64,000 nucleotides of DNA. Source: Octopus vulgaris (lineage: Eukaryota). Where the stretch lies: positions 54,932,001 to 54,996,000 of the forward strand of contig OX597831.1 of NCBI GenBank assembly GCA_951406725.2, read 5' to 3'. The notes under the pieces were generated by a model. That model was given only the letters and a program-made list of their open reading frames with translations, made no database searches and was not told the origin of the DNA. Shown one piece after another: positions 872-53,841 of the stretch. Each line of letters starts with the position of its first letter. Positions within the stretch are counted from its first letter, which is position 1. The translations under genes and the position numbers were made by a program.

Positions 872-943
872 ACTTATCTGACGAACAATCTGTTTAACGA
901 ACAGGGCTCCGAAATGGATATGTTCGTAAATACTGTAATAAGT
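872..943 (+). ncRNA. Degenerate type I hammerhead ribozyme motif
   Basis: Stem I acttat/ataagt, core CTGACGA (878-884), GAAA (911-914), GUA at 935-937; base of stem II unpaired and stem III rich in GU pairs. Confidence 0.5.
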
Positions 944-3004
944 TACAAAACTAATTAGAGCAGAAAGAAACTAACACTAATTTGAATCTGACTGCATTAA
1001 AATGTTGGATGTTGGTGATGATGGTAAAGACGATGTCAATGGCAACAACTTCTAATGAAACTAATACCACATAATCGTAAGCAGTTACAAATCGTGACAA
1101 ATTTCTGATAAAGATATTCTATCAATGTGTTAAGTGTGTTGACACTCATTCCCGTGACAATATTGACAAGAGCAAAAACATTAGAGATATTGAAGTAAAG
1201 TATACATTAACTTGCTTAATACGTAATCATGGTAACTCTAAATAACCAAGACTACCACAAAGAGGTTAACATTTTTTATTCAAATTAACCGAAAGAAATA
1301 CACACAAAATTAAAAAATATATATTTTTGAACTGACTTAATGTATCAAAGTGTAAATTAAATATAAATCAGGAATCAGTAAGGATAATGAGAAAAAAGGC
1401 TAGTTTGAATCTTAGCTGGGAAGATAAAAGAAACTCTTTATGATGCAGTCTGTAATATGCTTCTGTAATATTTGTTCTTGATGAGAGCACTTCATTATCC
1501 CATCAAGTATTGACAAGTAGTAAATGTCACTACACAGTATTCATGGTCTCTGGGTCTTCCTGAATGGCACACCTCTTGAACAATTACCTTGAATTATTTT
1601 AGCAGTTATGATGATGCATGTTTTATGTGGCCCACTTCTCAGAGAAAGTTGCCCTTGCTGGTCTACAGCTCGCTCACCAGTTCCTTTTGTACCCTTATCG
1701 TTTCCTTTACCCACTTCTTGTCCAGTGTGGTATCTGGCTAGAGTTTCACACTGTTTGAGTTTTTGAAACGTAAACACAGTTGGCTCCAATGTTATTAGCT
1801 CAACTAATCATAAATGTTGTTGAATGTTATTGAGGGCGGAGATGTATTCTAGTTTGTTCATTATATCAAAAGCTATTAAAAACGTCAGTTTTATGTTGGC
1901 AGCATGTATCATCAAGTTTAATTTCATGATAAATAATACATGCAAATATACCACAATATCAAAAATTGCATTGATCAGAGAATAAATAATTCAATGACAC
2001 TATCTGCATGATAAACGGTAGGTAGAGTTATTCAATGCATACAGTATTAAAAAGCTAAGGCTGAAACATGCTTGGAGTTGTTGTTTAACCTAGGCCAGCT
2101 CCTGTCATCCATCCTACCCATTGCATGGAGGATGGATATTAAATGATGATGATGATGATGATATAAATATGTAATGATATTAATTTGTTGTTATAGCAAC
2201 ATGTTGTAGGTGTGAAAGATGAACAATGCATGAAGTTTTAAGAAAATATTTATTTTTACCGTTACATTGAAAATACCTTACTTCGACGGGCAGGTTATAA
2301 AAATCCGAGAGCATGCAAAGTAAAGATAGATGTATAGTTTGTTCCCTTAGCAGTAAGCCACAGATTGCGATAGAATGATGTTGTAAGAGAACAGAATTAA
2401 GGTTAGTAAGAGTGAAATAGTGTAGAACAAATTGTCTCGTAGAGTCGCTAATTCTAGACTTCTCTGGATTATATATTTTCCAAACCATACAATTTTCTTA
2501 TGCCTATGTATGATCTTCAATATTTATTTAGTGATTCATTGATCACTCATTTTGCACACACAGTGAAGGCGGTGCTTTCCTGAGAAGACTACAATAAGAC
2601 TAGGACATGACCAGAATTGTCTTTGCTAGCACATATAAAATTTGCTCATAAACTTTTATATTTTTTACCCTTTCCTAAATGTGTCAGTAGATAATTATTT
2701 CTTTGAATATTTCCAACTATCTTTGGTCAATTCTAATCAATCATCCCATATCTTTCTTTGATCACTTCTACACTAAATACCATTTATTATATTATTAATC
2801 TATTACTGCTATCTTATTGTATTATATTAATATTTCTTTCCCTTTCATATTGTTTCTCATTTTCCTGTGTGATTAATATTTCTAAGTATCTATAACTCAT
2901 CTAGAAATATCTACATCATGCCAAATACAAAAACAACTTACCTATCTATCTCTTACACTCTATATTTTTTTTTAATTTTATTTTTAAATCTCTGTACCCA
3001 TCAG

Positions 3005-3342
3005 ATGCATCCCTGACAACACTAGGCAAATGGACTCGAATTCTGACAAGCAGCCTTGGTACGACTACCAGTCTAGAAGCAGATGAACCTACAAAAGCTG
3101 AAACTGATAGCTGGTACAGCTCGAAGTTTAGTGCAACAGCAAAGACAGCAACAACAACAACAGAAGCAGCAACAACAGCACCAACACAAGCACCAACAAG
3201 AAGAACCACAATTAAAACACGGAAATGTCAGGCTGTTGGTGCCTGGAGAAATGTTCCAGGAATGCCTACATGGTGTATTAATAATTGTAGGAGGGGATTT
3301 TGTCCTGAGAGTCACTGTTCACCTGGATGTGGAAATATTTAA
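3005..3342 (+). CDS. Terminal exon of a probably secreted, chitin-associated protein (Thr-rich linker plus Cys/Trp C-terminal module)
   Basis: Polypyrimidine tract plus cag at 3002-3004, then a stop-free frame ASLTTLGKW...TATTTTEAATTAPTQAPTRRTTIKTRKCQAVGAWRNVPGMPTWCINNCRRGFCPESHCSPGCGNI*; no upstream exons identified in the window. Confidence 0.78.
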
Positions 3343-5712
3343 TAATTTGGAGTTTTCACTGGTTATTTAAATGTAGTTATTCATGAATGTCTTTTAAAAA
3401 GATTTTATTCACTCATATAAATAAGTAAAAATTGATTTGCTTATGATGATTTGAACCTATGATACTTTCAATATTATTAGAAAGCTGCAATTATTAACAC
3501 TAAATCAGCTTTATGGACTCATCAGAATATCATTTTTTTTTTTTTTATTTACTTCAAAAAATTGTTTCCATTCAACAACAAAAAAAATTATTTTTTGTCT
3601 TACAGAATTTGAAGCATATGTTTCAAGAATACAATTTTCAAATTTTTCTTTGGTGTGGAAAAGAGAAGAATAACTTAATTTATATATTAAGTTGTTCTGT
3701 TGCTTGTTGCAATGAAATTGGTTTCCATATTATCCCTGCCAAGTTGATAGTTATCAACCTGTTTTTTGTATTATGGATTCAATTGTTGCATTGATGATGA
3801 TTCTTATAAGTATTAACAATCACAAACTCATTTCAAACAGTTGTAAATGATTGAACTGATTGTAAAAGGAATGTGATTTTTATTAACATCATTATGACAA
3901 GATGACACCAAGACAGAGAAATCAATTGGCATCAGAAATGATGTATGAGAAAAATGCTCCTATTTAAGTTCAAAATTGCTGTTTGATATCATCTATGTTG
4001 AGATGCAAGCAGTTGTTGTACTTTATCTTTTCCTACAATTTCACATTCATTGATTTCTCAATCATTGGGTGCTAAATGTGTTACCCACTTGCTTTCTCTT
4101 CTTTTGTAAGAGTATCTATTTTCTGCTATGTTAGCTTAAATTATATTGCAAAAATATATAATTCCTGCATCAAGCTATAAATATTTGACTGACTACTTAG
4201 AAGTGAACCCCCTCAGCTATATAATTACTTAAGATCTTAACAGGAATAAAGAAGAGAAAAATTCCATGTTTTTTCATGTGATAAAATAACTTGCAAAAGA
4301 AACCTCTCTTATTTAGTATTGTAAACAGAGCATATATTCTGTTTACAAAAGACACCAATAAGTCTCTACAACTGAAAAATATTCCAGATGCTATGAAATA
4401 AGTCCTATAATTTTTTGGTTCAGAGTTAAAAATTTTGATTAATGTTGAGTCCAGGATAGAACTTTATATGGCTAATAACAATGTTAAATCCAAAACTATT
4501 GGTAACACGTTAGCAAGTTAAATGTTAATAATACATTAATTACAACTTGTAATGAATATATGTATATATTGGCAAAAGAGGAACCATGATTCTGTAGACA
4601 AAAAAAAAAATGCGTAAATGCATGATAATTTATTCTTACCAGAATAAAGGGTTAATTAATAATTGCTGTGTAGGTTTCCCAATCAACATTATTGCAAACT
4701 AATTGGTAATTTTGAGTGACAGTTTAAAAACGTGAACACTTAATAAATTTTGTGTCAGACCATGCAAAAATTATGAAGATTTAAATTTTGAGAAAATTTT
4801 AAGACATCACCAAGAGTGATGTAGTCACAGAAAGCTGAATTTTTTAGTCAAAGGGTTCAACAGGTTGGAAGCTGTACACTAGCACTTAAGTTCACTGATT
4901 CAATTTACCCAGTTGTAAATAGGTTCCATGAGTTGGTGCAGCTTTCTGTTGTTGGAACTATCATTAACTGAGTTGTACCATACTCAAATCTTCCAGTTAG
5001 ACAGGAGTAATGGGAAAAAAAAACAATACTCTATGTTTTTCTCTATAAATAATCCTGTAAAACTGAAGAGGATCTGAGAAGTCAAAATCTTACACAACAG
5101 CTTCAACTCAGTACAAAAGCAATTATGATGAAAGAAGGATAAAAAAGTTATTTTATTCTTCAAGTATGTCTCCATGGAGCTTATATAATCTTTTCTGTAC
5201 CAACATATATTATAACATAATAATGTTTGATTTACAATATTCAATAATCACATTTTATTTTGTAAAGGACATGCATACTCAAGTTATTACATGTCTACAC
5301 CTAATATATTTCTATGCATATAAAAACTAGTCTTGCGGGGTAGGGGGACAGAAAAGAAATTGCAAGATTGGTCAATATGGTCAATGTGTAGTATGGAGTG
5401 TTAAGATTTGTTTTGTTTTTTTTGTTTGTGTTTCGTGTTTATGTTTTTTTTTTGTTTTTTTTTCTTTGTGTTTTTCGGAGGGGTTTTTTTTCTGGACCTC
5501 TTACGTGTGTATGAGTAAAATATATGCATTTAACTTAAACAACTTGCATTCAGTATTATTCAAAAATGAATACAATAGAAAGTTATACTTTCTTTCACAA
5601 ACACATGCATACATACACATATGCACATTTGTGCATTGTAAATTTTGCCAGTTCCTATGTGCACACATACATTTATTTATATATATATATACACACACAC
5701 ACACTTAAATAC

Positions 5713-5772
<60 letters not shown>

Positions 5773-6352
5773 TGTGCGTGCACGCACATGTGTATACCCG
5801 TCTATATATGATCCTATGTATTGTTACTGTTTTGTAATAGACTTTTGTAAATATAAACATCAACTGTTAAGTTTCCTTGAATGGAAAACACTCCAGACTA
5901 ATTCATTTTATATATTCTATTAAGGATCAACAGAAATTCTTTCCTGCAATATAACAAAATATTACATCTGTTCAAAAGTACAATTGCTAATAGCAATCCG
6001 CTTCAATGGTTATAAATGTTTTCAGCAAGGAATCGGGAGTCAATTTAACATATTAATATCTTTTATAATGATGATGATTATGATACTCTTTACTCTTTTA
6101 CTTGTTTCAGTCATGTGACTGTGGCCATGCTGGAGCACCGCCTTCAGTCGAGCAAATCGACCCCAGGACTAATTCTTTATAAGCCTAGTACTTATTCTAT
6201 CAGTCTCTTTTGCTGAACCGCTGAGTTACGGGGATGTAAACACACCAGCATCGGTTGTCAAGCGATGTTGGAGTTTCTACTATAGGTATAAGGCCTTTCA
6301 GGCCTTATACCTATAGTAGAAACAATTATTATTATCATTGTCATCATCATCA

Positions 6353-6392
<40 letters not shown>

Positions 6393-7119
6393 GGCTGTGA
6401 GCTGGCAGAATTGTTAGCATGCTGGACAAAATGCTTAGCAGTATTTCGCCCATCACTATGTTCTGAGTTCAAATTCTGCCAAAGTCGACTTTGCCTTTCA
6501 TCCTTTCGAGTTCAATAAATTAAGTACTAGTTATGTACTGGGGGTCAATGCAATCAACTTATCCACTCCCCCAAATGTTGCCCTTGTGACAAAATTTGAA
6601 ACCATTATTATTACTACTACTACTACTACTACTACTATAGCTATTATATTATGTATAATGTCACAAGGTGTCTGCTTTATTTTTAATTTCTCTAATTTTA
6701 TCAATCCCAATAACACGAGATAGGAAAATTGTCTTCCTTGCTTACACATCATCAGCACAACATTTGTAAATGAGTCATTATTGTATGTTGTAGGATTTTT
6801 TTTCTGTTGTTTCCATCATTTTTTTCCTTTCAAAAACATTTTTTTTTTCCCACACAGATCTTTATATGTAAATGTATAACAATTACGACCCATCTTTCAC
6901 TTTCAAATTCATCCTAGTACAAAAACAAAAAATCTGAAAAAATATATTTTTCTGATTCCTATTTTTAAAAAAATTGAGTGTAAATAATAATTAATATGAA
7001 ATAAAGATTTATATATATATATACATATTTTAAAATCAAGTATGTGTTTGGTTGTTTTTATTCCAGTCACTTTGGCTTTCATCCTTTGAGGGTTGATAAT
7101 ATAATGTAATTCCTTGGGT

Positions 7120-7606
7120 ATAATCTGCATTTTTTTCCCAAAATTTAAAGGTCAAAATCCCTTGTGCGTACTATATACGAGGTTAGAAATGAAAATTATG
7201 TTCTAAGCAATGTCCGAGTCTCTATTTGCTGTCCAGCAATGTTTATTCAGACGCATTTTGTGATGTTGGGCACGAAAATACCTTAAGCTCAGCCTGAAAG
7301 CAATGAAGTCATAAAAGAATCATCCATAACTTGCAGTAAGCAACATTTATTAAACGTAATTACTGTTATTTCTTTATTTTCTGCAAACAAAATGCACAAA
7401 AAAGCTCCACGTTTGCATTAGGTTATATACACAATAATAATAAAGGATGTTACCGTATACATTTTCACAAACCAAGGACGTTATGTAGAACTCCTTGACT
7501 AAAGTTAGAGAACGGGTGCATATCATAGGTTTTTCAGAGGTACAGCCCCCTAAAAATCCCCTGCGTATTATACTCAAGGGCGGACTATACTCGAAGATTT
7601 ACGGTA
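7120..7606. mobile_element. DNA-transposon remnant (Tc1/pogo-like end); left boundary approximate
   Basis: Ends in ...gcggactatactcgaagatttacggta; the same ~75-bp end recurs at ~26985-27063. Confidence 0.5.
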
Positions 7607-11599: not shown

Positions 11600-14525
11600 T
11601 AATTAATTGTTCCTGTTATATCGTGGAAATGTGTACTTGAGTTTAGAGTTATATCTTTTACTTCTTTCGGAGCATCTGTTTTCTAAGTTCTCTTCACACA
11701 ATAAAATGCACAGGGATTCCCAGAGCATAGATGGAAATTTATAGAAAAAGTATTATATAGTTGTGCATTTTTTATTATGGACCAAGTAATACAATATTCT
11801 ATTTCTTCTTCTTCTTTTAGTCTCCATATGAAATTAGCTACTGAAGTAGAATACCTCTTATCAATTCTATTGAAACAGGCAACACAATTGCGACACCTCT
11901 ATATACATATATACGCCTCCTCTGCTATTCACTGTGCATTTGTATATAATATGTTACGACGTATGCACTGGTTTTATTGAGATGCGCCTTTGTCCTAGAA
12001 TGTACGTTGTTCCTTAGTTGTCTATTTACTGTTTCGTTATTCTTTTTTCTTCCATTCCTAGTATTTCCTTTTTCATTTATTATCATTTGGCCCTAATTGC
12101 CTTTCGTTAAGTTCATCACATCATGAGTATTATGAGCATTCGAATTTTCAACATTTCACTGTCAGCGGTATTTTCACCGTATTTACTTATACTATTAATT
12201 CTATTGTAATTATTGGGAAATGCCTGACTTGTTTCTTCCTTATTATCAGAGTCCTTATTAGCTAAATTATCCTTTAGTTTCCTCACTAACAGTGTTATTT
12301 ATCTTCTGGTCTAATAATAATTTCGGCCACTTGATTTTGCATATGAAACCTTCACTGTATGTCTGTTAAAAATTTTGTGGTATCTATTAGATTTTAGATA
12401 ACATTTATCCAATGGGGTAAAAAAAATTCCATGGCAATCTGAGATATTTGTAAGCTATAGATAGAATTATATTATAAAACATCTGATTTCTTATACTTTT
12501 TGTCCACTTTGTTGTTGCTAATATACGGTGTGGAAGTGTCACTATTTAATAGGTTATGTTTAAACTTCATATTTTGGTGTTCCTTAGTTTCAGTTCCTAT
12601 TTTACTTTTAGCATCTTTTTCTTATTCGTAGTTTAATCTGACCGTCTTCCTCAATTCTGTATTTACAATTTAGTGTCCTTATGGGAGGTTTAGTTCTCTT
12701 AGTATCGTAGCTACAAGAATTAACTATATTATTATCATACATATCTTTTATTTTTCTGTATATCCAATCCCAGCCAATGTAGCATTATAATAGGATGCAT
12801 GTGCGTTAAAATTTGCTTCGTTCGCTGATAATCTTGATATTCTATTAGATATGTGTTTTACTAGTCCTTTTATTATAGAAGGCGGATGACTTGACTGTAC
12901 ATTAATGTACCTCAGGTTCTCATTTTGCTTGTGGAAAAGCTCAAATGATCCTATATCTAAACTAAAAGTTGCATCTAGAAAATTTACCTTACAGTAATTA
13001 TTTCCAATGGTAAGAGATAACAAAAAACGTTTGAATAATTTATAAAGTTTTCTGTCTCTCCATTTCTACCTTACTATACTGGTCTAGTATGAAGCGTCGT
13101 CGTCATATAGACACCCCACACCCACCCCATCTTTGGTAACCAGAATTCGATTTGGTATACTCCAACAAGATCCGTTACTTGTGCTGAGTCACTAGATCTC
13201 AATGCTGTATCAAAAAAAGCTACCTTATCTGATCTACACCAAAGATTTCCATCAAAATCTACCATACCTCCTCGCGCGGCTAATATAATTTCTATCTCTG
13301 ATCTAGATAAATCCGTATTCCGCATTGTAAAAGTTAAGGTCTTATTTAGAAAAATGGGATTAATAGTGGAGTAATAGCTAGCTATGTCTAGTTGTATAAA
13401 TTATTACTATTATTTATCTCAAGTTCCATAAATCACCCGATTTCCTCCTGAGTATCAAACCACAGTTACAGTCTAATTTAAGATTTAAGGATTAGCATTA
13501 CTCTGTCGGTAATAGTTTTGCTAATCCGACCTATATCCGATTTGGAGAGGCATATCAATGTAACTTGGGATCGTTATTAAAATTATTTTTATGGTCCTTT
13601 AAATTTATCCTAGGTTTTCTAGGGACATACAGTTCTGTACTATCTTGTATTCTTCGTCTAGTGACTATGTCGAATCCCTTATCATTTATATTTGTTAGTG
13701 TGTTTTGGGGTGCATGTTTATACTTATTGCATAGTTCTTTTCTAATTAATTCCTGGTATAGTTCAGTTTTCACAATGTAAAGATTACCGGACTTGTCTGC
13801 TGGTGCTAAAATCCTTGGTGTTTGTTTAAAATCTTTGAGTACTTTCCATAATGTTTGCTGGTGTCAGTTATTTCTCCTGGGTTATTTTTTTGGAATTTAA
13901 CATTTTTTTAATGATTTTATAAAGTTTTCTTCGAAAGGTGCTCAGTATTGATGAGCAGTTGGGTTTTTCAGGGATTTAAGTTCCTGTCCAAGTGTATCCA
14001 CCGATCTTTTCTAATAATGTGTACTATCCTTCCTGTCGAAGAAGAATGCGTTCCACTGCATTCTACGTATAAAATAGCTAGTACTCTCTGAGAGTTTCTT
14101 AGTATATTCATTCTTGTTAGGTATTGATATATCTTTCAGCGAAACATCGAATGTGATTTTTTTTCTATTTTCAAAGCGCACTACGTAATAGTAACTTTCT
14201 TCGGGTATAGGATACTGTTGGTATTAGTAATAATTTTATATTTGGGTATACACATTGTAGCATGATGTCTAAAGCCCGTCCACAGTAATCGGTTACTTGA
14301 AGTCAACAACAGTGTGGAGACATATTCCACTGGATTTACCTCAGGAATTCTTTTGTGTCCGTTTCTATAAAGAAAATGCGAGGCAGAAAATAAAATTCAC
14401 GAGACGTTTTATTCATAACCACTACGATCGTTTCGATTCATCGTACACCGATACCTTACAGGTGATATACGGTACAAACAATTGTCATGCATCATAGTGT
14501 AGATGTATCTCCTCAGGTGACTTTT
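11600..14525 (-). mobile_element. Decayed near-full-length Penelope-like element (Naiad-like RT plus C-terminal GIY-YIG); boundaries approximate
   Basis: Frameshifted pieces in order: SLKDISIPNK..FIRRMQW, PADKSGNLY, LKDHKNNFNNDPK..SKSDIGRISK, SSDSAQVTDLVG, VNFLDATFSL..YINVQSSHPPSIIK, YHKIFNRHTVKVSY, YKCTV..YI..STSVANFIWRLKE..ITWSII; HHR at the 5' end. Confidence 0.85.
14417..14522 (-). ncRNA. Type I hammerhead ribozyme upstream of a Penelope-like ORF
   Basis: Minus strand: agtcac-CTGAGGA-gatacatctacact...ggtgtacgatgaatc-GAA-ACGATCGT-A-gtggtt; long stem II, palindromic stem III, GUA site. Confidence 0.8.
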
Positions 14526-22824: not shown

Positions 22825-22924
22825 NNNNNNNNNNNNNNNNNNNNNNNNNNNNNNNNNNNNNNNNNNNNNNNNNNNNNNNNNNNNNNNNNNNNNNNNNNNN
22901 NNNNNNNNNNNNNNNNNNNNNNNN
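22825..22924. other. Assembly gap (100 N) in the last SQOR intron
   Basis: Run of exactly 100 N; true gap size unknown. Confidence 0.99.
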
Positions 22925-26038: not shown

Positions 26039-26488
26039 GTATCTTTTCCTTTTGAACGACAGTTTTCGACACAATTTCTAGTTAACTAGACACTTTTAAA
26101 CTTCGTATACTGGTAGAATGTGTCAAAATAAAACATTTTTTTCTCTTGGCTTTCTTGAGAAAATTGTAATTTGTAAGTTTAACATAGTTTAATTTTTCGA
26201 ATTTTAACCAATCGATTGAGCTAAAATCATTTGATGCGTCTAAAACTGAGACACCATCCTGTCACTAACCCTAACATTAACCCTAAAATGATTTTAGCTC
26301 AATAGAGGCCATCGATTGGTTAAAATTCGAAAAATTAAACTACGATAAACTTACAAATTACAATTTTCTCAAGAAAGCCAAGAGAAAAAAATGTTTTATT
26401 TTGACACATTCTATCAGCATACGAAGTTTAGAAGTGTCTAGTTAACTAGAAATTGTGTTGAAAACTGCCATTCAAAAGGAAAAGATTC
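26039..26488. mobile_element. Fold-back MITE with ~190-bp TIRs and 8-bp TSD (possibly Merlin- or hAT-type)
   Basis: TSD ggtacttt at 26031-26038 and 26489-26496; long TIRs; spacer has taaccc units; inserted in an older SINE. Confidence 0.85.
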
Positions 26489-27580
26489 GGTACTTTATTT
26501 CATGTTGCTGCAGTCACAACATAGCTAGGACTAAATATTATGGAAAATTGTCATCATTTGCAGAGGAGTTTCATGTTCACATACTTCTTAAGCATACACC
26601 ACAGAAACGTCAGCCTAATACACCCATAAATTCGACACCTTATATGCACACACACACGCACAGAAGGATTGCATAGCATTCTCCAGCACCTCAGTGACTT
26701 TCTGCTTGAATTCCTCTCTCTCTCTCTCTGTATGCGTGCGCGTGTGTGCGTGCATGTCCAAAAAAATCGACACCATTTCCTAGTCTAATAACATAGCCAA
26801 TTCTTGCTCAAATGATCTCAAATTTTAGTAAAATATGTAAAAACTAAGTTTGGATTGAGCATGCCAGTGATAATGACAATGTGCTGTTGAAATGGCCATC
26901 ACGTTCAACCTAACTTGGCACCTTGTGATTTGTTTCTATGGGGCTATGTCAAAGGAGTGATTTATATCCCCCACTCTTCCCACAGGTTTTCCAGAAGCAC
27001 AGCCCCCTAAAAAATCCCCTGCATATTATACTCAAGGGCAGACTATACTCCAGGATTTACGGCATAAAATCTACATCCCTCTGAATTTCTTGTTCAAATA
27101 TTGATATATAAATCTTTTATTGTTCAACATGAAATCTATGTAATTTCGTTTGCCTTAGACATATAGTTACTCAGATATTCACATTTCAAATTATATCAAT
27201 TTTGGTGGGGACACGCTGTATGTATATATATATATATATACAGACAATGATCTTCTTTCAGTTTCCATCTACCAAATCCACTTACAAAGCTTTGGTTGGA
27301 ACAAGGTGTGGCACAGTGGGACTGAACCTGGAACAATGTGATAGAAAAGCAAGCTTCTTACCATACAGCCACGCCTGCTGTATATGCATATATGTGCACG
27401 AGTGCATATACACATATGTGCATATAAATTTTATATATCAACCCACCAAGTTTCCACCAATTATAACTGTTGGAGCAGACACCTGGGTTTGAATCAGGTG
27501 GTATACATGCTAGTTCACCCACTGCTGAGACCCTGACAGGTGCTACTATTCCATGGGTTGGGAGTCTCTAATCATGGTAA

Positions 27581-27634
27581 CGCATGCTGAAGAAGCTAAG
27601 GTTTATTTTACCAATGCAGAAACCGGTCCATGTG
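27581..27634 (+). ncRNA. Minimal type I hammerhead ribozyme motif
   Basis: cgcatg-CTGAAGA-[imperfect stem II, gc..ggt/acc..gc]-GAA-ACCGGT-C-catgtg; palindromic stem III, GUC site; A.A mismatch at the base of stem II. Confidence 0.7.
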
Positions 27635-27963
27635 AGTCCAAATACTTAAATGCATGTTAGTAGATCGTCTTAACCTGATTTTGTCTTCGTTTGATTTCTG
27701 TAGTTTTCATCAGTGTATTTTTGGCAATCTAATAAGAGTTTTGACTGTTATTTCAAGCAGGTAGACATACTTAGTATGTCCTTTCATAAATTTTAATATC
27801 TTGGCTATTTAATGCTATTTTTTAGCCTGCTATCGCCTGTGTCATTGATTCTGTTATTATCATTTTTTAAATAGTTACATTTGATAATAATAGAATTAAT
27901 GATACCTTCGTAAATTAATTTTTGGTGAATTATTTTTCTCGTAAATTGTATCGAGATTATTTT

Positions 27964-28250
27964 ATAAGACAATGGAGAAACAAATTTAGTTTGTTCATCA
28001 ACTTACGGATATTATAATGTTGGATTATTTATTCATTTTACAAATGAGAACAACAAAAGCATACAAAATAGGATTTCATTAATTTATAATATGACTTTTA
28101 AAATCTGTATTTGTATTATTATCTTATCTATCGATTTATATAATATTTTGCATGCTTTTGATGTTCTCATTTGTAAAATGAATAAATAATCCAACATTAT
28201 AATATCCGTAAGTTGATGAACAAACCAAATTTGTTTCTCCATTTTCTTAT
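27964..28250. repeat. Inverted repeat, 107-bp arms with 73-bp spacer
   Basis: 27964-28070 is the reverse complement of 28144-28250 with about four mismatches. Confidence 0.9.
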
Positions 28251-31901: not shown

Positions 31902-31945
<44 letters not shown>

Positions 31946-32027
31946 GGTCCCGGGTTGAGTCGGGGTTAACCACAGTAAATAAGGTACTCAATACATAACA
32001 GAGTAAATTAATTTATTTTATAGAAGG

Positions 32028-32078
32028 AGCTTCTACAGGACTAGAACTGTTTCATTCAAATGAAATCATCAGGAAGCT
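32028..32078 (-). ncRNA. Type I hammerhead ribozyme (left arm of palindrome; SQOR sense strand)
   Basis: Exact reverse complement of 32620-32670. Confidence 0.8.
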
Positions 32079-32619
32079 TGGTGTCAAAATAAGTTCTGGC
32101 ATTTATACATTTAGGCAGATTTAATGGGGTGGTGGTGGGGGACATTTTTTGGGTAAGCAGGGCACAAACTGTCTTTCTTAGGGGAGTGGTCAAAAGAATC
32201 AGTGATAAAGTAAATAAATGAATAAATAGAATAATTGAATAGAGTTTTAGGTAAATTAGAAGACTATCGCTTTTAGTCAGTTTGTTGTTGTTGTTATTAA
32301 GTGGAGGGAAGAAGTAGATAAGTATACATAAATGAACATATAAAATAAAATATGTATACATATAAAATATGTATACTTATCTACTTCTTCCCTCCACTTA
32401 ATAACAACAACAACAAACTGACTAACAGTGATAGTCTTCTAATTTACCTAAAACTCTATTCAATTATTCTATTTATTCATTTATTTACTTTATCACTGAT
32501 TCTTTTGACCACTCCCCTAAGAAAGACAGTTTGTGCCCTGCTTACCCAAAAAATGTCCCCCACCACCACCCCATTAAATCTGCCTAAATGTATAAATGCC
32601 AGAACTTATTTTGACAGCA

Positions 32620-32670
32620 AGCTTCCTGATGATTTCATTTGAATGAAACAGTTCTAGTCCTGTAGAAGCT
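32620..32670 (+). ncRNA. Type I hammerhead ribozyme (right arm of palindrome)
   Basis: agcttc-CTGATGA-tttcatttgaat-GAA-acag ttctagtc ctgt-A-gaagct; 6-bp stem I, 4-bp stem III, GUA site at 32662-32664; weak stem II with U.U at its base. Confidence 0.8.
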
Positions 32671-32690
32671 CCTTCTATAAAATAAATTAG

Positions 32691-32756: not shown

Positions 32757-33724
32757 ACACACACATATATATATACACACAAGCTCTAAGAAAAATTTAA
32801 ATTCATCAAGGCTTTTCCCCAGTATGGCCACAGTCCAATGACTGAAAGAAGTCAAAGTATAAAATATAACTGGGCAACTGCCATGGAGGCAAAATCATAT
32901 TTTAGGGACAGGAACATTGTCAATGATGTCAACCCCAAGACATGGCTGGTACTTACTTTAAAGACTGCAGAAAGACAAAAGACAAAAAGGGTTTGAACTC
33001 ACAATAAAAAGGGAGAGGATTAAAAGCTACAAGGTTCTCACTTATAAAAACATCCTTTTAGAAATAAATACAATAATTAACCCTATGCATGGAGTATAGC
33101 TTTCAGGTGCAGGCATGCATGGGTGTGTGGTTACATCGTTCACAACCACAGGGTTTTGGGTTCCATCCCAGTGCTTGACACATTGGGCAAGTGACTTCTA
33201 CAATAGCCACAGGGCAACTAATGCCTTGTGAGTGAATCTGGTAGACAATACCTGACGGTAACTGTCATGTATATATGTGAGTGTGTGAATATGTACATGT
33301 GTACACGTGTGTGTGTGCGTGTATGTGTGTGTATGCATGTTAATATCTTCATGCTTCTTCACAGTAACAACATTTAACACTGACATTGTTTACATCCCAT
33401 CTACCTCAGTGGTTTCATCGCATGAAGACCAGTGCTACGAAAAAACTACTTGGAAAAACAATTAGAATTGGCCACATCATGGGCATCTGGCCTTAGAATA
33501 CTGTCTCAATAAATCTCATCCAACCCCTGCCAACATGGAAAAAGTGGATGTAAAACTGATGGTGATGATGGTGGCAATGGCAATAATGGTGCTGATGGCG
33601 ATGATGGTGGTGAGGTGATGATGGTGGCAATGGCAATAATGGTGGTGACAGCTATGATGATGAAAATGATGAAGCCTTGTTTTTTCTTTCAAAGTACATT
33701 GCTTAGAATCAGAAGAAGCTGTCA

Positions 33725-34093
<369 letters not shown>

Positions 34094-36100: not shown

Positions 36101-37385
36101 TATCAGGTCATTAAGAATGAAATGTCCAATTTTTTTATGCACCAAGTTTGATAGTCATTAACTCTAATGTTTTTATCCCAACAATTCTTTGTTTTAAAAC
36201 TTTGCAAAGTTAACTCATCATTTTTCGAAATGTAATTCATGGTGTCTGATTATATTGTGAGTTTTTCTTGTAAATCAGCTTTTATGAACCCATGGAGAGA
36301 TCAAAAATTCATGTTGTTTATGAATATGAGTTCTGTCATGGAACCAATGCATCCCAGACAGCGCGAAACATCAATGAGGTGTTTGGTGAAGATGTGGCAA
36401 ATGAGCACAATGTATGTCCATGGTTTGAGAAGTTCTAGTCTGGTGACTTTACTCTTGAAAATCAACCCCATGGTAGACCTGAGACCAAGGTGGATAATGA
36501 TGAGATGGAAACTAGTGGAAGCAGATATATCTCAAACTACACATAAGTTAGCAGCAAGGTTTGATGTTTCGATTCCAATAGTGTTGGACCATCTGAAACA
36601 AATCAGCAAGGTAAAGTAGCTGAACAAGTGGGTACCACATGAACTGAACAAGCATCAAATGACACATCATCTTGAAACTTGTTCTTTGCAGTCATGGCAT
36701 AAAAGTGAACCATTTTTGCATTGTATTGTTATATGTGATGGAAAATGCATTCTTTGCAAAAATAGCAAGCGTTCTGCTCAGTAGTTGGATAGAGACATAG
36801 TGTCAAACCACAATCCAAAAAACAATATTCACCAAAAAAAAGTAAAAGGAATTTGTTTGATGATCCAGCACTGGTGTCATCCACTAGAACTTCATGAGAT
36901 CTGGTAAGTCAATTACAGCAGATGTATTCATCAACCAATTGGGTGAAAAGATGAGTGAACTTGCAATTAAACAACTGAGATTGGTCAATAGAGACAGGCC
37001 AATTCTCTTGCAAGACAATGCTCAACCACATGTTGCACAAAGAACGCTACTCAAGTTACAGGAACTGAACTTGGAAGTACTCTGTCATTCACCATATTCA
37101 CCAGACCTTGCACCAACTGACTATCATGTTTTCCAGGCAATAGACAACTTTTTGCAAGGAAAAAACTTCAGATCTGAAGAAGATGCAAGAACAACCTTTC
37201 ATGATTTCATCACCTCTTGCTTTCCAGAATTCTTCGCTGCAGGCATAAATAAGCTACCAATAAAATAGCAATATCATGTTTATAATTTAGGTGCATACTT
37301 TGATTAATTGCATTACTTTTTGTCAAGATGAAGTAAAATAAACTTTCAGCTCAAAATCAAACATTTCATTCTTAATGATCTGATA
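36101..37385 (+). mobile_element. Full-length decayed mariner transposon
   Basis: TIRs tatcaggtcattaagaatgaaatgt / acatttcattcttaatgatctgata; transposase relics WVPHEL, ILLQDNAQPH, HSPYSPDLAPTDYHVF; several stops and frameshifts. Confidence 0.93.
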
Positions 37386-42217: not shown

Positions 42218-42253
<36 letters not shown>

Positions 42254-42860: not shown

Positions 42861-43211
<351 letters not shown>

Positions 43212-43222
43212 TTAATATTATA

Positions 43223-44149: not shown

Positions 44150-44217
<68 letters not shown>

Positions 44218-45584: not shown

Positions 45585-48500
45585 GACTTAATCCCTTTGT
45601 CTGTCTTTGTTTGTCCCCTCTATCTTTAGCACCTTGTGGGCAATAAAGAAATAAGAATCATTAGCAACCCAGGCAAAATGTTTAGTGGCATTTTGTCCAT
45701 CTTAACGTTCTAAGTTCAAATTCTGCTGAGGTTGACTTTGTCTTTCATCCTTTCAGGGTCGATAAATTAAATACCAGTGAAACACTGGGGTCAATGTAAT
45801 CGACTAACCCTGCATCCCCTAAAATTTCAGGCCTTGTCCCTTTAGCAAAAAGGATTAATGATGTCTAGTAATACAGTAGATATCAATAATGCTTTTTACT
45901 GATATCAGCACCAAGTAAACTCTGAATGGTAGTTTTCTTTCACTGAATAACAAACAGAAAAATCAAGTGATCAGTCAGTCACTGCAAGAATGGCTGTGAT
46001 TATCAGTCTACTTAATCAGGTTTGACTTAGTCAATCCATGTTGTAGGAGTAAATCTGGAAGATGGAAACTGTATGGAAGACTGTCATATATCTGTATGTG
46101 TCTATTTTATATGTGTACATGTCTGACTCTGCCACCTTATTGTCACTGTTTGACAACTAGTGTCAGCTTCTTTATGTACCTATAAGTCAGAGGTTCAACA
46201 AAAACAGTGAATAAAATAGTACCAGATTTAAAAAATAGGTACTATGGTGAATTTGATTGACTATACACTTCCAGGCTGTGCCTCAACAAGGCTGAAACAA
46301 AAAAAAAAGATAGAAAATATTGGAATATGTGATGATGATGATGATGATGATGGTGGTGGTAGTGGTGGTGGTTGTGATGATAGTGGCGGCGGTGGCAATG
46401 GCAATGGTGATGGTAGTGGAGATGATGATAATGGCATTGTTGCTGTTGTTGTTCATTTTTAATTAAGTACACATAATAATTACCACTCCAGTAACTGCAT
46501 CTTTTCAAAGTAATTTATTACCCTATATCAAGTTTGTGTTAGGAAGTATGTTCCATAATATCCTTCCTCCTTGAAAATTGGAACATCCTAATTTAGAATC
46601 CATTTAGCAATTAGTCTGTCATGTTACCAAAACAAATGCTGATTTCAAGTTTTGGCACAAGGCCAGTAATTTTGGGGGTGGGAGTAAATCAATTACAACA
46701 ACCCCAGTGCTCAACTGGTACTTATTTTATCAACCCCGAAAGATTGAAAAGCAATGTTGGCCTCAGCAGAATTTGGACTCAGAACATAAAGATGGATGGA
46801 ATGCCACTAAGCATTTTACTCAGTGTGTTAATGATTCAGCCAGCTTGTTACCTTACCAATACAAATATTGTTAATGGTAGTGATAAGGTGGTGAGCAGGC
46901 AGAATTGTTAAGAGCATCTGAATAAATGCTTTGTAGCATTTGTTCCAGCTCTTTATATCCTAAGTTCAAATACTGCAGAGGTTAACTTTGCCTTTCATCC
47001 TTTCAGGTTTGAATAAAATAAAGTGCCAACTCCAGTACTGGGAACGGTGCAACTGATTTATCCCACCCTCCTTTCAAAACGTTGGCCTTGAACGAAAACT
47101 TAAAACTATTAATGGCCTTAAAAGTTTATCGCTTAATTAATTAATGAACGTATGCTGAGCCATTAATTATAATGTTTTTTGTGTTTTTGTGAAAGATAAT
47201 CTGCGTCATTAAGTTTGAACAAAAATGTTTCACTTTGACTTCACAGTTGAGCAGTTAAAGTGAGGTAAGTTATCCAGCTGTAAAGATATTAGATACTCCA
47301 ACAATACACAAGTTTTTTTCTCAAAATTTGTAAAAATTCCTTCCATCCAGCCTAATCAAGGACCAATAAATAACAACAAAAAAAGTATAAATAAAACACC
47401 TAAAACAAAGCAGTAAACTAAAGTAGCTTTGATGAGATGAAATTTCTGAACTACGTGGGTCAATGGTTCAGTTCAAGCTCTGAGCTATTTTCTTCACTGA
47501 ATTTAGCATTAATAGTAATGTATGGTGAAGCTAATGCTCATCTGAGGAGAGTTGATAAGACTAGAACATGTCCAATATATTCTCCCTTATTAGCTGAAAT
47601 TATTAGAAAACTATTAATGATTGAGCTAATTTCTCTTCTTTATAATTATTATCTAATTATTTTTAATTATCTTCTTCATGCTTGCTATGTTAAATATCTT
47701 GAGGATACATAGACTAGACATCGTATGGAGGCTCTAAACATCTCACAGTATGAGCACAAAATAAAAGAAGAGATTTACAGACAAATGCTACTCATCTCTA
47801 CTACTGTTGCTCAATGCAGGGTAAGCTTTGCTAGCCACTGCTGTCATGCTGGACAACAGGCCATATCAGATGTATTTTGGAGACATCCAAACCCTAACAT
47901 CATCATCATCATCATCGTTTAACGTCCGTTCTCCATGCTAGCATGGGTTGGACGGTTCGACCGGGGATCTGGGAAGCCAGGAGGCTGCACCAGGCTCCAG
48001 TCTGATTTGGCAGTGTTTCTACAGCTGGATGCCCTTCCTAACGCCAACCACTCCGTGAGTGTAGTGGGTGCTTTTTACGTGCCACCTGCATAGGTGCCAG
48101 ACGAGGCTGGCAACAGCCACGATCGGATTGGTGCATTTTACGTGCCACCGGCACGGAGGATGAAAATCACTCAACTACATTATTATTGGCAGAGATATAT
48201 AATATGAAATGGAGGACCTTCCAAGACTAATGAGGACAGAAATTTCTAGTGTGGCTTGGTAAAATGCATCTCAGCTGCAGCCATTCAAAGACAACATTAA
48301 ATTTGTCAACATTAGTTTAACTTAAAAATAAAGTTGATTGGAAGAAGAAAAAATTCTGAGGCTTTGAAGCTGATATTTTCTATCATTTGATTAATTTTTG
48401 AAATTATACATCTGTATTATTAAATGTCCAGCATTAGTTCCAGCCCTTGTTGCAGTGCTGTGGTTTGTATACCTCAATGACCCTGAAAGTCAGAACACAA

Positions 48501-48892
48501 GCTCCTAGTATGGTCTCCAATGCTGAACAGGTCAAAGGACAGATGCTCGACTAATACAGACCATCTCTTCCCAGAGATAAAAATGGATTTGCATAGGGCC
48601 AACATCCTATGTAGAATAAAACAAAGTTAAAGAAGCATTGATTACAATTCAAAACCAACAAAGCCTGGGAGAAGAAGGTCTTCTCTTAGGGAAACATATA
48701 CTTTAAAAATAGCAGGAAGCAAAATGCTGAGGTAGTGCTGAAAAAAGCAGGGATCCAATTACAGAGAAGCAGAAAAGCCAGCCTAGAATGAAGGACAATG
48801 AGGGCTGGGGGTGTCATTGACAGCTGATGTTTCATAGGGAATGAAGGGCTTAAGTAAATCATTATCAAACATAAAAGAAAACAACATTATAC

Positions 48893-49063
48893 CTTGCTGC
48901 CATCTTTGAGAGTAACAAAGTTTTTGTCTGGATTAAAGCCGACAACTGAATCGTTAATCCATTCACTGTTTCGTGGTATCACTGAAGCCATGGTTCTCCT
49001 GGAATCGCTTAGTTTTTTCAGTCCTCCACCAACTAATGTCCATAATGGTTGATAGTAATGCTC
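48893..49063 (-). CDS. SQOR: SQOR coding exon (most 5' exon found; 171 nt)
   Basis: cag|EHYYQPLWTLVGGGLKKLSDSRRTMASVIPRNSEWINDSVVGFNPDKNFVTLKDGSK|gtat; matches the SQOR HxYQPxWTLVG motif; phase 0/0. Confidence 0.95.
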
Positions 49064-50813
49064 CTGTCAATAAAATGTAGGAAAAAAAAATTAATTAAAA
49101 TTAAAATTCAGTTTTGTTAGATGTATATGACTGAATCATCACCTCCATCAGTATCACCATCATCACCACTACCATCACTTAATCATTACCATCATCACTA
49201 TCCCCCACACCACTACCTCCATATGTTATCCCCACCACCACCACCACCATATATCATCACTGCTGTGTACTATCGACATACACTGCATAAGTTAATGAAG
49301 AAGCCTCTATGAAATCGTTTAACCTGCTAGAAGTAACACCCAAATTTCCTTCAACTCACAGTCTACCATCTTAGTAAAGGAACACTACATCATAACATAG
49401 TCCTTGGTTCTCTGTACATAAGAAAAAAAAGATGGGATGATCGTGGTGGGATACCTTTGATCATAGGTATACTAGATTAGGATGGGCCTGAAGCTAAACA
49501 ACACAGTCCTTCCTACTTTGAAACAGAAATATGAGACGTGAGAAAAAGCAGTCCAGCCTTGACCCTTCCATTTTCAAGAACTATACTACTCAACATTTCC
49601 AGTGTAATTTGTGAGAGATTTGGCAGCTATTTCTAGCTGATTGAGAAGACATGAAGAAGATCTCTCGTTAAAGTTCTATAACCTAAGCTTCAAATTTTTT
49701 CACTGCTAGAGTTACCTCCCTTTAATTTCGTTTCATAATAAATGCGATTCGATTTTTTTTTGCTGTCAATTCTTATCGAGCAAAGTTACGATAAAAGACG
49801 TCCCAATCGTGGCCATCCATTTTTTTTTTTTAGCTATTGTGTATTAATGTCTAGACTACACTATCCAGTGTGTTCTTTCGGTTAATGAGACATTATTACC
49901 CGGAAACGAAATCGAAAAAATAGTGCAATGAGTGTAAAAAAAAAGGTGGGGGAGGAAGCTAGGAAGCGAATATGAAAACAAAAATGCGAGGAAAGCAACG
50001 GGTGGTAGTGGGGGGGGGGTACTTCGGAAAATTCACAAGATCCGAGTTTTTCCCTCATAACTTTTAGGAAAATAAAATTTTATATAACGGCGTACATTAC
50101 GATTATAACGAATTGTGGGTAAAATCTTTCCCGGAAAAAGGGCAGGAACCCCAATAAACGCTTTTTAGAAGGTGAGATGCGAAATAGCATTTGCCACTTT
50201 TCTTTACCCAAACGTTTTCTAGAGTGTGGATTACATTGGAAAGAAAATTCAAACATATCTATGTGTGTGTGTATCTTTGTGTCTGTGTTTGTCAATCCCC
50301 ACCCTCATTGCTTGACAACTGGTATTGGTGCATTTACATCCCCATAACTTAGCAGTTCAGCAAAATAGTCTGATAGAATAAGTTCCAAAATTAGTATTGA
50401 GGAGGTCGATTTATCTAACTATAAATTCTTCAAGACAGGGCCCCAGTATGGCCACAGTGTAATGACTCAAACAAGTAAAAAAGGTACACAAAACTTTTTA
50501 AAGAATGGAAAAGTTCAATAATGAAAACAGTGTCTGCTTTGTACTTCTGTCTTTTTAACTATTGTTCACTAAAATATTTTGAACTGATGAACACAAAGTC
50601 GAAGAATAAATAAAAAAATTGTCATGATTTTAGCTGGGGAAAAAAGGTCAGTAAAATGAGACAAACATTCAAGTACCGAGATGTACTCGCATAGCAAGTA
50701 ATTTGATCTGAGATCGTGTGCTGAAACGAAAACAATTGCAGCGTGGAAGGTGTTTGTAAGCCATTTAAGAAACACACAAAAGCCGTTCGATTCACTTCAA
50801 CATTTAAGTTTAA

Positions 50814-50863
50814 TTTGTCAAAATATTTTCGTCGCTAAAATCCGCGACCTGTTCACTGACAAA
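50814..50863 (-). ncRNA. Minimal hammerhead-like motif with G3/C8-swapped core (left arm; sense to the PLE ORF and to SQOR)
   Basis: Exact reverse complement of 53792-53841, lying 3' of the GIY-YIG ORF. Confidence 0.68.
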
Positions 50864-51803
50864 AATCCGTGCTGCATCTGAGAAAGTAACAGCTAGTTCG
50901 TCATATATATGTACGTATGTATGTGTGTATGTATGCATACACGTATGTATGTATGTATGTATGTATGTACGTACATACGCCTGTGTATGCATGTATGTAT
51001 GTATATATGTATGTGTGTATATGCACGCACATACACACTATAAACATAAAGCTATAAACCTGTAGTGATGGATAGATGTAGAGTGACCACTCATCACAAT
51101 AATATCAAATTTCACCCCACCCCCGCCGAAACTAGGAAGTGATTTACGACCCTCACTCCCAAAACTACACCCTAAAACCTATTATCAGATATTTATCTCT
51201 ATATCACAGAACTTTTGTTTTACTATTGTGCGTATGTATGTATGTATGTATGTATGTATGTATGTATGTATGTATGTATGTGCGTATGTATGTAATATGT
51301 ATGTATGTATGTGTGTATGTACATACGTACGCATGTGCGTATGTATGTATACGCGCACGTATGCATGTGCCCATGTATGTGTGTGCGTACATGTACGTGC
51401 GTATGTACGTGTGTATGCCCATACGTAGGTATGTATGTATGTTTGTACTCATGTGCTACGTATGTATGTGAGTGTCTAGGAGAATGGGCAGACGCGTCTG
51501 TGAGAGTGTGTACATGTGTATGTGTATGTGAATGTATGTCCGTGTACTGGCATGTGTCCGTCCAAGTTGTGTACATGACTGTTACTTTGTTGAAGGTTGT
51601 ATACATACTCACATATATGTTTGTATAGACGCACACACATACATATATATATGTGTGGGTGTGTGTTTGTTCCTCTCATCACCGTCTAACTGTGAATGGG
51701 TACAACGCCTAAGTGTAGCTGTACGTATCAAACAACGTACGCTCATACGGTTATATATAACTGCACATAACGCATTGCAACATGTATGTAAGGACTACAA
51801 GTA

Positions 51804-51839
<36 letters not shown>

Positions 51840-52181
51840 GGTTATAGAATAGTCCTTCTGAATGGGATCTGGATGTTACCCCATTCGGATTTTCGGTTGA
51901 GAGTAGGTTTGTATTCTTGTATACAAACAGCTTCTGTGACCTGTCTCAACATTGCATCGGTGGGATGTGTTGATAGGATGTTCAACTTAAGTTTCCCTAA
52001 GGATCCTTTGTGGCAGTCTACAGCATGTTGGTAGAAGATGGAGTTTGGCTTCCTTTCAATGTAGTTGTCCAGGTGTTCTTTGAACCTATCATTGATGCTT
52101 CTAGAAGTCTCACCTATGTATGACTCTGGGTTAGTCGCGCAAGCTCCCTCTTGGCACTTAATCTAGTATACAGTGCCCTTG

Positions 52182-52413
52182 TGGCGGCGAGCTGGCAGAC
52201 ACGTTAGCGCGCCGGGCGAAATGTTTAGCGGTATTTCGTTTGTCGTTACGTTCTGAGTTCAAATTCCGCCGAGGTCAACTTTGCCTTTCATCCTTTCGGG
52301 GTCGATAAATAAAGTACCAGTTTCGCACTGGGGGCGATATAATCGACTCAATCCTTTCTTCTGTCCTTGTTTGTCCCCTCTATGTTTAGCCCCTTGTGGG
52401 CAGTAAAGAAAAA
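52182..52413 (+). mobile_element. tRNA-derived SINE (family B) inserted in the PLE endonuclease ORF
   Basis: 15-bp TSD tatacagtgcccttg at 52167-52181 and 52414-52428; related copies at ~6391-6604, 45188-45657, 60221-60430 and elsewhere. Confidence 0.9.
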
Positions 52414-53791
52414 TATACAGTGCCCTTGGTTTTTGCAGTTTACATGTGGATTTGTCGAACATACTGCACAATTACTTTGACAGGTGATTCTATCAAATGG
52501 ATATGATCTGCATAATGCCGATTTGATAGTCCTACCTGTCTTTTCTACAACTTTGATTTTTAGGCCAGTGGTGCGCAGGATTTTCTTGAATGCCTTACTT
52601 AGCTCGTTCTTAGGTGTGGCGTCTACGAACATTACTCCGTGAAATCTCCTGTTATCGTACCAAGTAACGTTTCTCATCCTTTTGTTGGTGTCCCTCTCTA
52701 ACCTATTCCAGAACCTATTCCGATGCAATGTTGAGACAGGTCACAGAAGCTGTTTGTATACAAGAATACAAACCTACTCTCAACCGAAAATCCGAATGGG
52801 GTAACATCCAGATCCCAATCAGAAGGACTATTCTATAACCACCACCCCCTCTCTCTCTCTCTCTCGTTTACTTGTAGTCCTTACATACATGTTGCAATGC
52901 GTATGTGCAGTTATATATAACCGTATGAGCGTACGTTGTTTGATACGTACAGCTACACTTAGGCGTTGTACCCATTCACAGTTAGACGGTGATGAGAGGA
53001 ACAAACACACACCCACACATATATATATATGTGTGTGTGTGTGCGTCTATACAAACATATATGTGAGTATGTATACAACCTTCAACAAAGTAACAGTCAT
53101 GTACACAACTTGGACGGACACATGCCAGTACACGGATATACATTCACATACACATACACATGTACACACTCTCACAGACGCGTCTGCCCATTCTCCTAGA
53201 CACTCACATACATACGTAGCACATGAGTACAAACATACATACATACCTACGTATGGGCATACACACGTACATACGCACGTACATGTACGCACACACATAC
53301 ATGGGCACATGCATACGTGCGCGTATACATACATACGCACATGCGTACGTATGTACATACACACATACATACATACATACATACATACATACATACATAC
53401 ATACGCACATACATACATACATACATACGCACAATAGTAAAACAAAAGTTCTGTGATATAGAGATAAATATCTGATAATAGGTTTTAGGGTGTAGTTTTG
53501 GGAGTGAGGGTCGTAAATCACTTCCTAGTTTCGGCGGGGGGTGGGGTGAAATTTGATATTATTGTGATGAGTGGTCACTCTACATCTATCCATCACTACA
53601 GGTTTATAGCTTTATGTTTATAGTGTGTATGTGCGTGCATATACACACACATACATATATACATACATACATGCATACACAGGCGTATGTCCGTACATAC
53701 ATACATACATACATACATGCATACATACACACATACATACGTACATATATATGACGAACTAGCTGTTACTTTCTCAGATGCAGCACGGATT

Positions 53792-53841
53792 TTTGTCAGT
53801 GAACAGGTCGCGGATTTTAGCGACGAAAATATTTTGACAAA
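53792..53841 (+). ncRNA. Minimal hammerhead-like motif with G3/C8-swapped core (right arm)
   Basis: tttgtca-GTGAACA-g-gtcgc ggatttta gcgac-GAA-AATATT-T-tgacaaa; 7-bp stem I, 5-bp stem II, palindromic stem III. Confidence 0.68.

Follow-up and report, generated by a model that had tools for sequence, protein, structure and literature searches.

Hammerhead motifs of Penelope-like elements in a 64-kb region of the Octopus vulgaris genome and the fixed 5′ boundary of their short copies

Introduction

Hammerhead ribozyme motifs that share no sequence, yet lie close together in one genomic region, raise the question of whether they represent genuine ribozyme families and, if so, what their many non-coding copies are. 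The window considered here is a 64,000-nt stretch of Octopus vulgaris DNA (contig OX597831.1, positions 54,932,001–54,996,000; G000:C18:54932001-54996000 in our numbering), taken from a 2.8-Gb assembly in 227 contigs. An earlier note had described in it five unrelated families of type I hammerhead motifs, at positions 872–943 (F1), 14417–14522 (F2), 27581–27634 (F3), 32028/32620 (F4) and 50814/53792 (F5), some attached to coding sequence of Penelope-like elements (PLEs) and others seen as non-autonomous ribozyme elements. All seven sequence stretches quoted there were found at the positions given for them. The present analysis retains four of the families and reveals that the short copies of F4 and F5 have a fixed 5′ boundary, which is likely the transcription start of the element. 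These short copies probably derive from the element mRNA, whose 5′ leader would have been copied uncut, and are unlikely to be separate non-autonomous elements.

Results

Hammerhead motifs in the window

The window was scanned with a relaxed type I descriptor (stem I of at least 5 bp, a core with complementary positions 3 and 8, stem II, GAAA, a palindromic or 4-bp stem III, and UH). Six matches were obtained, at 14516(−), 27587(+), 32072(−), 32626(+), 50856(−) and 53799(+), compared with a mean of 0.07 and a maximum of 1 in local dinucleotide shuffles of the window (n = 30). The minimum length of stem II had been lowered from 3 to 2 bp after the first version of the descriptor missed F3; the F3 match is thus partly by design, and support for this family rests on covariation (see below).

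The type I layout was confirmed for F2, F3, F4 and F5 but not for 872–943, which reduces the five families to four. Within the core (CUGANGA...GAAA...UH with a complementary 3:8 pair), F2, F3 and F4 carry C3:G8, and F1 fails at the family level. The core of F5, previously listed as CUGANGA-type, actually reads GUGAACA, i.e. the C3:G8 pair is swapped to G3:C8. Stem III is a short palindrome in F2, F3 and F5 (the three palindromes recorded earlier, ACGATCGT, ACCGGT and AATATT, are all present), F4 having instead an ordinary 4-bp stem. The sites are indeed unrelated in sequence, as had been stated, since comparison of all five gave a single match, of 16 nt (E 0.037). F2 and F5 are joined to PLE coding sequence within the window, again as described before, and F4 is so joined at other loci; these three families occupy terminal repeats of elements with a PLE open reading frame (ORF), and F3 occurs without an ORF. 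Taken together, it is probable that F2–F5 have the minimal type I hammerhead layout of PLE terminal repeats. Their likely place is within the first ~45–60 bases of the mRNA, and the cutting predicted for them is slow or confined to dimers.

Short copies of F4 and F5 share a fixed 5′ boundary

The ends of F5 were inspected in 70 matches on contig C1 (the first 30 and 40 hand-picked ones, several close inverted pairs being skipped) and those of F4 in 50 loci (the first 10 and 40 hand-picked), comprising 56 arms. Native upstream sequence was missing from 65 of the 70 F5 copies, most of which start 15–27 nt before G3. Among the F4 arms, 38 were short, starting at or within stem I, and 18 were long. 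The shared 5′ boundary is located 6 bases (F4) and approximately 23 bases (F5) upstream of core position 3. The copies lie mostly in (TA)n, often as back-to-back arms, and stop at one of two fixed 3′ points beyond the predicted cut (at about +87 or +150 for F5); the tails, i.e. the spacing between the two ends, measure about 60–130 nt.

A TATAAAT-type box is present exactly 29 nt before stem I in 16 of the 18 long F4 copies, despite differences in the spacer between subfamilies. When F4 was followed in four runs, the spacer varied and no variation at 10% was seen in the box or in the ribozyme stems. In run X18, which bears another organism label, 42 contigs leave the F5 element at window position 53776, which is the same boundary. 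Moreover, an extra G, absent from the long copies (0/4 in F5 and 0/11 in F4), precedes the start in 9/17 short F5 and 11/25 short F4 copies.

These features suggest the following mechanism. RNA polymerase II would start at the boundary, from a TATA promoter located upstream in the repeat, and the element protein would begin reverse transcription at two internal sites and, the ribozyme being uncut, continue across it as far as the capped 5′ end. Copying of the leader would leave promoter-less copies (150–210 nt in F5) as the main product, and the rarer long copies would derive from RNA that is tandem, circular or produced by read-through. An extra G before the first base is what copying of a cap would leave. 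The individual components have precedents: two internal reverse transcription start sites and an uncut RNA template were described in vitro for an anole PLE (PMC11167929), the Penelope repeat contains a start site and a promoter (PMC2377424), and PLE hammerheads cleave as dimers (PMC4209133, PMC6765202). In the literature text available for survey, no publication on cap-bounded PLE leader copies was found. What is new here is the fixed 5′ boundary behind a TATA-like box, together with the fixed 3′ ends of the F4 and F5 copies. The non-autonomous ribozyme elements proposed earlier are accordingly narrowed to F3, which stands alone, the ORF-free F4 and F5 copies being probable short products of autonomous PLEs.

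Opposing evidence and alternative explanations

Several observations argue against the reading given above. Cleavage, start sites and the circular form of F3 are predictions made from contig sequence only, the pattern searches pre-select intact cores, the covariation counts correspond to few subfamily events, and clades were assigned from motifs alone. The TATATAT word of F5, at −30, sits in a TA-rich tract, and the boundaries of F4 and F5 both resemble splice acceptors. The excess of the extra G in short copies gave a Fisher P of 0.10 in F5 (0.015 in F4), and it is confounded, since an inverted arm able to supply a G lies next to 43 of the 65 short F5 arms and next to every one of the 38 short F4 arms. 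As regards the ribozymes, Rfam gave no match at the gathering score in the window: RF00163 (Hammerhead_1) reached 14.9 bits on F2 compared with a cut-off of 34, and no hammerhead family was listed for F3, F4 or F5. The G10.1–C11.1 pair beside the core is present in the F2 majority and in F5, and is replaced by A.A in F3 and by U.U in F4; the F4 variant of the window can also fold G12–A13 into pairs. Monomers of F2, F3 and F4 fold no better than shuffles, the dimer prediction for F5 does not form the stem III duplex, and H17 is U in F5. When the whole window was compared with Rfam at E up to 10, microsatellite matches dominated and no hammerhead was found in the best 150 of 273.

It is conceivable, though we consider it unlikely, that the motifs are hammerhead-derived sequences that no longer cut and have been retained to serve the PLE protein as signals for binding or dimerisation. 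The best candidates for loss of cutting would be F5 (G3:C8, H17 = U) and F4 (U.U, 3-bp stem II), and each copy counted came from RNA that was uncut at the site, i.e. the patterns select for uncut molecules. Available reports also state that ribozyme mutants leave in vitro insertion unaffected and that no RNA-seq ends occur at the cut (PMC11167929), and that PLE hammerheads have low activity (PMC4209133). However, the 3:8 pair remains complementary across families, protein-assisted cleavage and partial rescue by an engineered C3G/G8C exchange in a PLE hammerhead have been reported (PMC11167929), and an axolotl hammerhead with U.U at the base of stem II does cleave (PMC7229834).

The resemblance to splice acceptors raises a second possibility, considered improbable, that the boundary is a 3′ splice site and the RNA behind the short copies had been spliced, its first exon being very short. 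Before the F5 boundary lie a word resembling a branch point and a pyrimidine tract that ends with CAG, a YAG or AAG stands at helix I in F4, and the intron of Penelope from Drosophila virilis is described as ending at the 5′ end of helix I (PMC4209133). Nevertheless, the short copies retain the AG, no common exon-1 sequence is found upstream of the 65 F5 or 38 F4 short arms, and the F4 box keeps its distance of 29 nt across subfamilies.

Slightly less probable again is the view that the boundary is a hot spot of fold-back or template switching during reverse transcription at short palindromes, without a start site. All short F4 arms adjoin an inverted arm and several of them fold back exactly at AAGCTT, but 22 of the 65 short F5 arms have no inverted arm, many of which still start near the same point, and long F4 subfamilies without the AAGCTT palindrome have the same TATA spacing.

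Copying of the uncut leader from a transcription start remains the preferred explanation of the short F4 and F5 copies. Its extension, according to which the thousands of lone hammerheads in animal genomes rich in PLEs arose by reverse transcription of a PLE mRNA leader that was capped and uncut, and F5, among the most successful families, does so with a natural and catalytic G3:C8 core, is put forward tentatively, with slightly less than even confidence. If true, the ribozyme would be the first structure of the mRNA (F4 stem I at +1, 29 nt behind the TATA box), and the cut, by removing the cap, would act as a switch between translatable, copyable RNA and cut or circular RNA. The genome would then record the start site, the reverse transcription starts and the cleavage state of each family. 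A boundary behind a TATA box offers a testable anatomy (promoter outside, ribozyme at the mRNA head, reverse transcription start downstream) that would explain the need of PLEs for partial tandems and the nature of short copies as dead ends.

The G3:C8 core of F5 and the sister family F6

The F5 pattern gave 8,052 matches (5 in the control, for which, as for the other families, the pattern was reversed). Among the first 100 matches listed, variation is concentrated in loop II, and the subfamilies mostly keep the core and stems; the right-arm hammerhead of the window folds with a z-score of −3.4. One copy (L437) contains an open frame of 997 amino acids (aa) ending in a GIY-YIG domain (PF01541, 25.5 bits, above the cut-off) 1 kb before the ribozyme. 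Pfam analysis of this frame revealed no match to a reverse transcriptase (RT), the RT motifs being read by eye. Together with a CX2-5CxxC linker and the C-terminal GIY-YIG, these are features of Neptune elements; the choice of this clade name over Nematis is our assumption, made from motif likeness. The F5 ribozyme stretch (window 53745–53922) is present in runs under six organism labels, so the family predates related species or crosses between them.

A version of the F5 pattern with the usual C3:G8 core had seven matches, one of which seeds a further family, F6 (L297–L316; seed L200:1400-1600), with 2,340 first-look candidates that are ~85% alike and carry C3:G8. Stems I and II of F6 resemble those of F5 (covariation between the two in stem II was read by eye), and Neptune-type ORFs 43% alike to that of F5 were found in L298 and L310. 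The canonical-core F5 copies were not counted as an ancestral subfamily: two of the seven are F5 copies, and in one of these the partner arm keeps G3:C8.

When any base was allowed at positions 3 and 8, C:G, U:A or G:C stood there in 38 of 40 strict matches; the pair was complementary in 7/7 matches from an even sample and in 31/33 from other loci, many of the latter being anchored F3 or F5 copies and hence not independent. C:G, U:A and G:C pairs thus occur in the genome matches, and A3:U8 was not seen among them. At least three hammerhead types with U3:A8 were noted (L272:4717, L284:8313, L010, L250:8996, L257, L161:3821), one of which follows the end of a Penelope/Poseidon-type ORF (L272, L010).

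In F5, G3:C8 is likely to represent a compensated core variant of weak activity. Natural U3–A8 hammerheads have been published (PMC3088659, PMC4209133). Natural G3:C8 was not found by a literature text search of partial coverage, in which notation varies. The core is missed by Rfam and by CUGANGA descriptors; being young, with thousands of copies and an open ORF, F5 provides a ready test case for it.

F2 and F4, hammerheads of Hydra-type elements

F2 is an old family whose copies are ~80% alike. Its majority sequence is canonical, and both core words survive in 18 of the 30 copies that were aligned; the F2 pattern had 71 matches (control, 0), with varied long inserts in stem II. The linked 2.6-kb frame contains RMQW, DKS, RT motifs and a GIY-YIG-like end, but is broken by many stops and frameshifts, and its linker is unreadable. 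It is related to the F4-linked ORF (tblastn E 1.5e-6), and its motifs, on which the clade assignment is based, fit the description of the Hydra clade (PMC8557442). A further remnant of a Hydra-type endonuclease is located at window 55545–55784 (−), where the descriptor found no intact hammerhead.

F4, in turn, is young (best matches 97–100% alike) and abundant, with 5,308 pattern matches (control, 0). Variation in the first 100 matches listed is almost confined to N7 and loop II, i.e. the stems show invariance only. The insertion in the window has a long tail on the left arm and a short end on the right arm. ORFs linked to F4 in loci L149 and L162 encode a CxCX5C linker, CxxC and CxH; their N-terminus was not seen. 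In L159 and L160 (G000:C27:8169000-8188999), F4 arms are combined with another hammerhead type, whose palindrome is ACAATTGT, and this composite is duplicated ~11.7 kb apart.

F3, a non-coding permuted unit

The exact F3 pattern had 75 matches (control, 0), and first-look candidates numbered 538. Of 54 places fetched, 47 were distinct after removal of seven duplicates, and all of them align to a closed unit of 473 nt, eight being longer than one unit. The longest open frame has 64 aa, and the circle folds with a z-score of −3.7. The 3′ ends cluster ~167 and 290–335 nt beyond the predicted cut. In 13/47 copies the 5′ ends lie near the second 3′-end hot spot (unit ~265–300), and the stretch covered between these points is very nearly a single unit in four copies. 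Only one of the 47 5′ ends was close to the predicted cut (8 nt upstream), which gives no support to starts at that point. No same-strand pairs at unit spacing were present among the 75 exact matches, a search that degenerate arrays could escape.

Among 30 pattern-picked copies (28 distinct rows), a single pair in each of stems II and III is changed on both sides, in nine rows for either stem, and the covariation score was reached by none of 500 shuffles; the changes go back to two or three events, and part of the core had been fixed by the pattern. The covariation test proposed earlier is therefore positive for F3. Conservation of cores no higher than that of flanks, the refutation envisaged before, is a weak one for dead copies, the informative test being covariation at the subfamily level. 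Stem III among the 75 matches, read by eye, was ACCGGT in 51, ATCGAT in 23 and mixed in one; a double change thus preserves the palindrome, of the kind proposed for dimer formation.

As judged from these sequences, F3 fails the definition of a non-LTR (long terminal repeat) retrozyme array, yet appears to work like one with a PLE footprint. It was likely moved in trans by a PLE protein, from circular or tandem RNA. It is very improbable that F3 is just a terminal repeat belonging to an autonomous PLE with an ORF outside the sampled loci: the F3 footprint is the same as that of F4 and F5 and only 47 places were examined, but all of these fit wholly in the closed unit, eight exceed it, no frame is longer than 64 aa, and the sole adjoining Neptune-type ORF (L226) ends in another hammerhead-like motif. 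For the same reason L226 was rejected as an autonomous partner of F3. In L296:2268-4587, a Neptune-type family with 50–60% protein likeness to F5 has its own hammerhead-like 3′ motif, and an F3 copy adjoins the ORF. Palindromic elements (~85%), probably miniature inverted-repeat transposable elements, are located at window 26041–26486 and 27964–28250, the second abutting the F3 copy.

F1 and other sequences of the window

A genome search with F1 revealed 28 matches, whose majority sequence (541 bp) has matching inverted ends and TA flanks; single old copies seldom show both ends. The word CTGANGA at the supposed core occurs in 1/28 copies, the window's own, and homology stops within the supposed stem I, by which a decayed hammerhead is ruled out. 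The motif is a chance look-alike at the right end of the element. By its build (inverted ends, TA flanks) F1 is likely a non-autonomous DNA transposon, which we take to be of the Tc1/mariner type.

An exon-like frame at window 33722–34093 (−) resembles sulfide:quinone oxidoreductase but has no Pfam match; the ribozyme elements may lie within introns of a host gene. Fragments of a mariner-type transposase are located at 36236–37268 (+) (DDE_3, E 0.0024), and 100 N at 22825–22924. The coordinates of the main features are given in Table 1.

Table 1. Features of the window associated with the F1–F5 sites (positions are those of the window)
Feature	Position	Strand	Remarks
F1, decayed ~540-bp terminal-inverted-repeat element	410..935	.	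Left end approximate; 28 genome matches; inverted ends, TA flanks
F2-linked broken Hydra-type PLE frame	11725..14362	-	Directly downstream of F2 hammerhead; six-frame reading
F2 hammerhead	14417..14522	-	C3:G8; G10.1-C11.1; ~75-nt stem II insert; palindromic stem III; predicted cut after 14423
F3 piece, 412 nt of 473-nt non-coding circularly permuted unit	27553..27966	+	47/47 copies fit circle
F3 hammerhead	27581..27634	+	C3:G8; unpaired A either side of stem II; palindromic stem III; predicted cut after 27628
F4 insertion, two back-to-back 3′ arms of Hydra-type PLE in (TA)n	31943..32689	.	96% inverted repeat
F4 hammerhead, left arm	32028..32078	-	Descriptor match
F4 TATAAAT box	32591..32597	+	29 nt upstream of putative start
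F4 putative start site	32620	+	Boundary census
F4 hammerhead, right arm	32620..32670	+	C3:G8; U.U base of 3-bp stem II; 4-bp stem III; predicted cut after 32664
F5 insertion, two back-to-back 5′-truncated Neptune-type PLE arms	50678..53922	.	12-bp target-site duplication (50666-50677, 53923-53934)
F5 hammerhead, left arm	50814..50863	-	G3:C8; descriptor match
F5 ORF, C-terminal part (linker CX3CX2C, GIY-YIG)	51845..52737	-	tblastn 91-98%; another repeat interrupts ~52183-52348
F5 TATA-like word (53746-53752) and putative start site (53776)	53746..53776	+	Boundary census
F5 hammerhead, right arm	53792..53841	+	G3:C8; extra G after A9; 5-bp stem II; AATATT; H17 = U; predicted cut after 53834

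Genome-wide repertoire

In 60 evenly placed 10-kb stretches of the genome, 11 descriptor matches were found (0, 2, 3, 1 and 1 in five shuffles), which upholds the dense and diverse PLE/hammerhead repertoire suggested by the earlier note; rough extrapolation gives ~45,000 descriptor matches genome-wide. Inspection by eye of this sample, and of a further 878 kb from other loci, showed about eleven more motif types, five of them at two or more places. With four insertions compared with 1.07 expected from the 600-kb sample (P 0.023 before allowing for the choice of window), the window is somewhat richer in hammerhead insertions than average. Dense and diverse sets of PLE hammerheads are known from trematodes, coelacanth and frog (PMC4209133), and many families per window are expected for such a genome.

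Comparison with known systems

The elements linked to F2 and F4, taken together, share with the Hydra clade (Craig et al. 2021, PMC8557442) RWK-like and DKT-like motifs, CxCX5C, terminal CxxC/CxH and (TA)n targets, and those linked to F5 share with Neptune/Nematis of the same study the C-terminal GIY-YIG and the CX2-5CxxC linker. In contrast to the PLEs described there, the 3′ untranslated regions are long and microsatellite-rich. The supplement of that study includes an octopus element, Hydra-1_Obim; four short words from F2–F5 were not found in its available text, where line breaks could hide them.

F3 resembles the non-LTR retrozymes (PMC7229834; bioRxiv 10.64898/2026.07.22.740005) in being non-coding, with one type I hammerhead per unit, permuted copies of more than one unit, a stable circular fold and a proposed PLE origin. 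As far as the available text of these sources goes, it differs from them in the lack of same-strand tandems among the 75 matches, in the size of the unit (473 nt compared with 220–390 nt) and in that its circle is predicted.

The Poseidon element of Anolis carolinensis (Frangieh et al. 2024, PMC11167929) likewise has two internal RT starts giving an optional tail, an uncut RNA template and AT-rich targets. The tails are longer in the octopus families, G3:C8 is natural here and engineered there, and no start-site boundary is described in the available sections of that report.

Metazoan PLE hammerheads (Cervera and de la Pena 2014, PMC4209133) have in common with the hammerheads of this genome the type I layout, a short palindromic stem III, an extra base between positions 9 and 10.1, U3–A8 variants, many unrelated families per genome, and copies that are mostly single or back-to-back. 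G3:C8 as in F5 does not occur in the available text of that study, and a further difference lies at the base of stem II, which has A.A in F3 and U.U in F4. Single copies were regarded there as probably truncated PLEs, whereas those described here have a fixed 5′ boundary.

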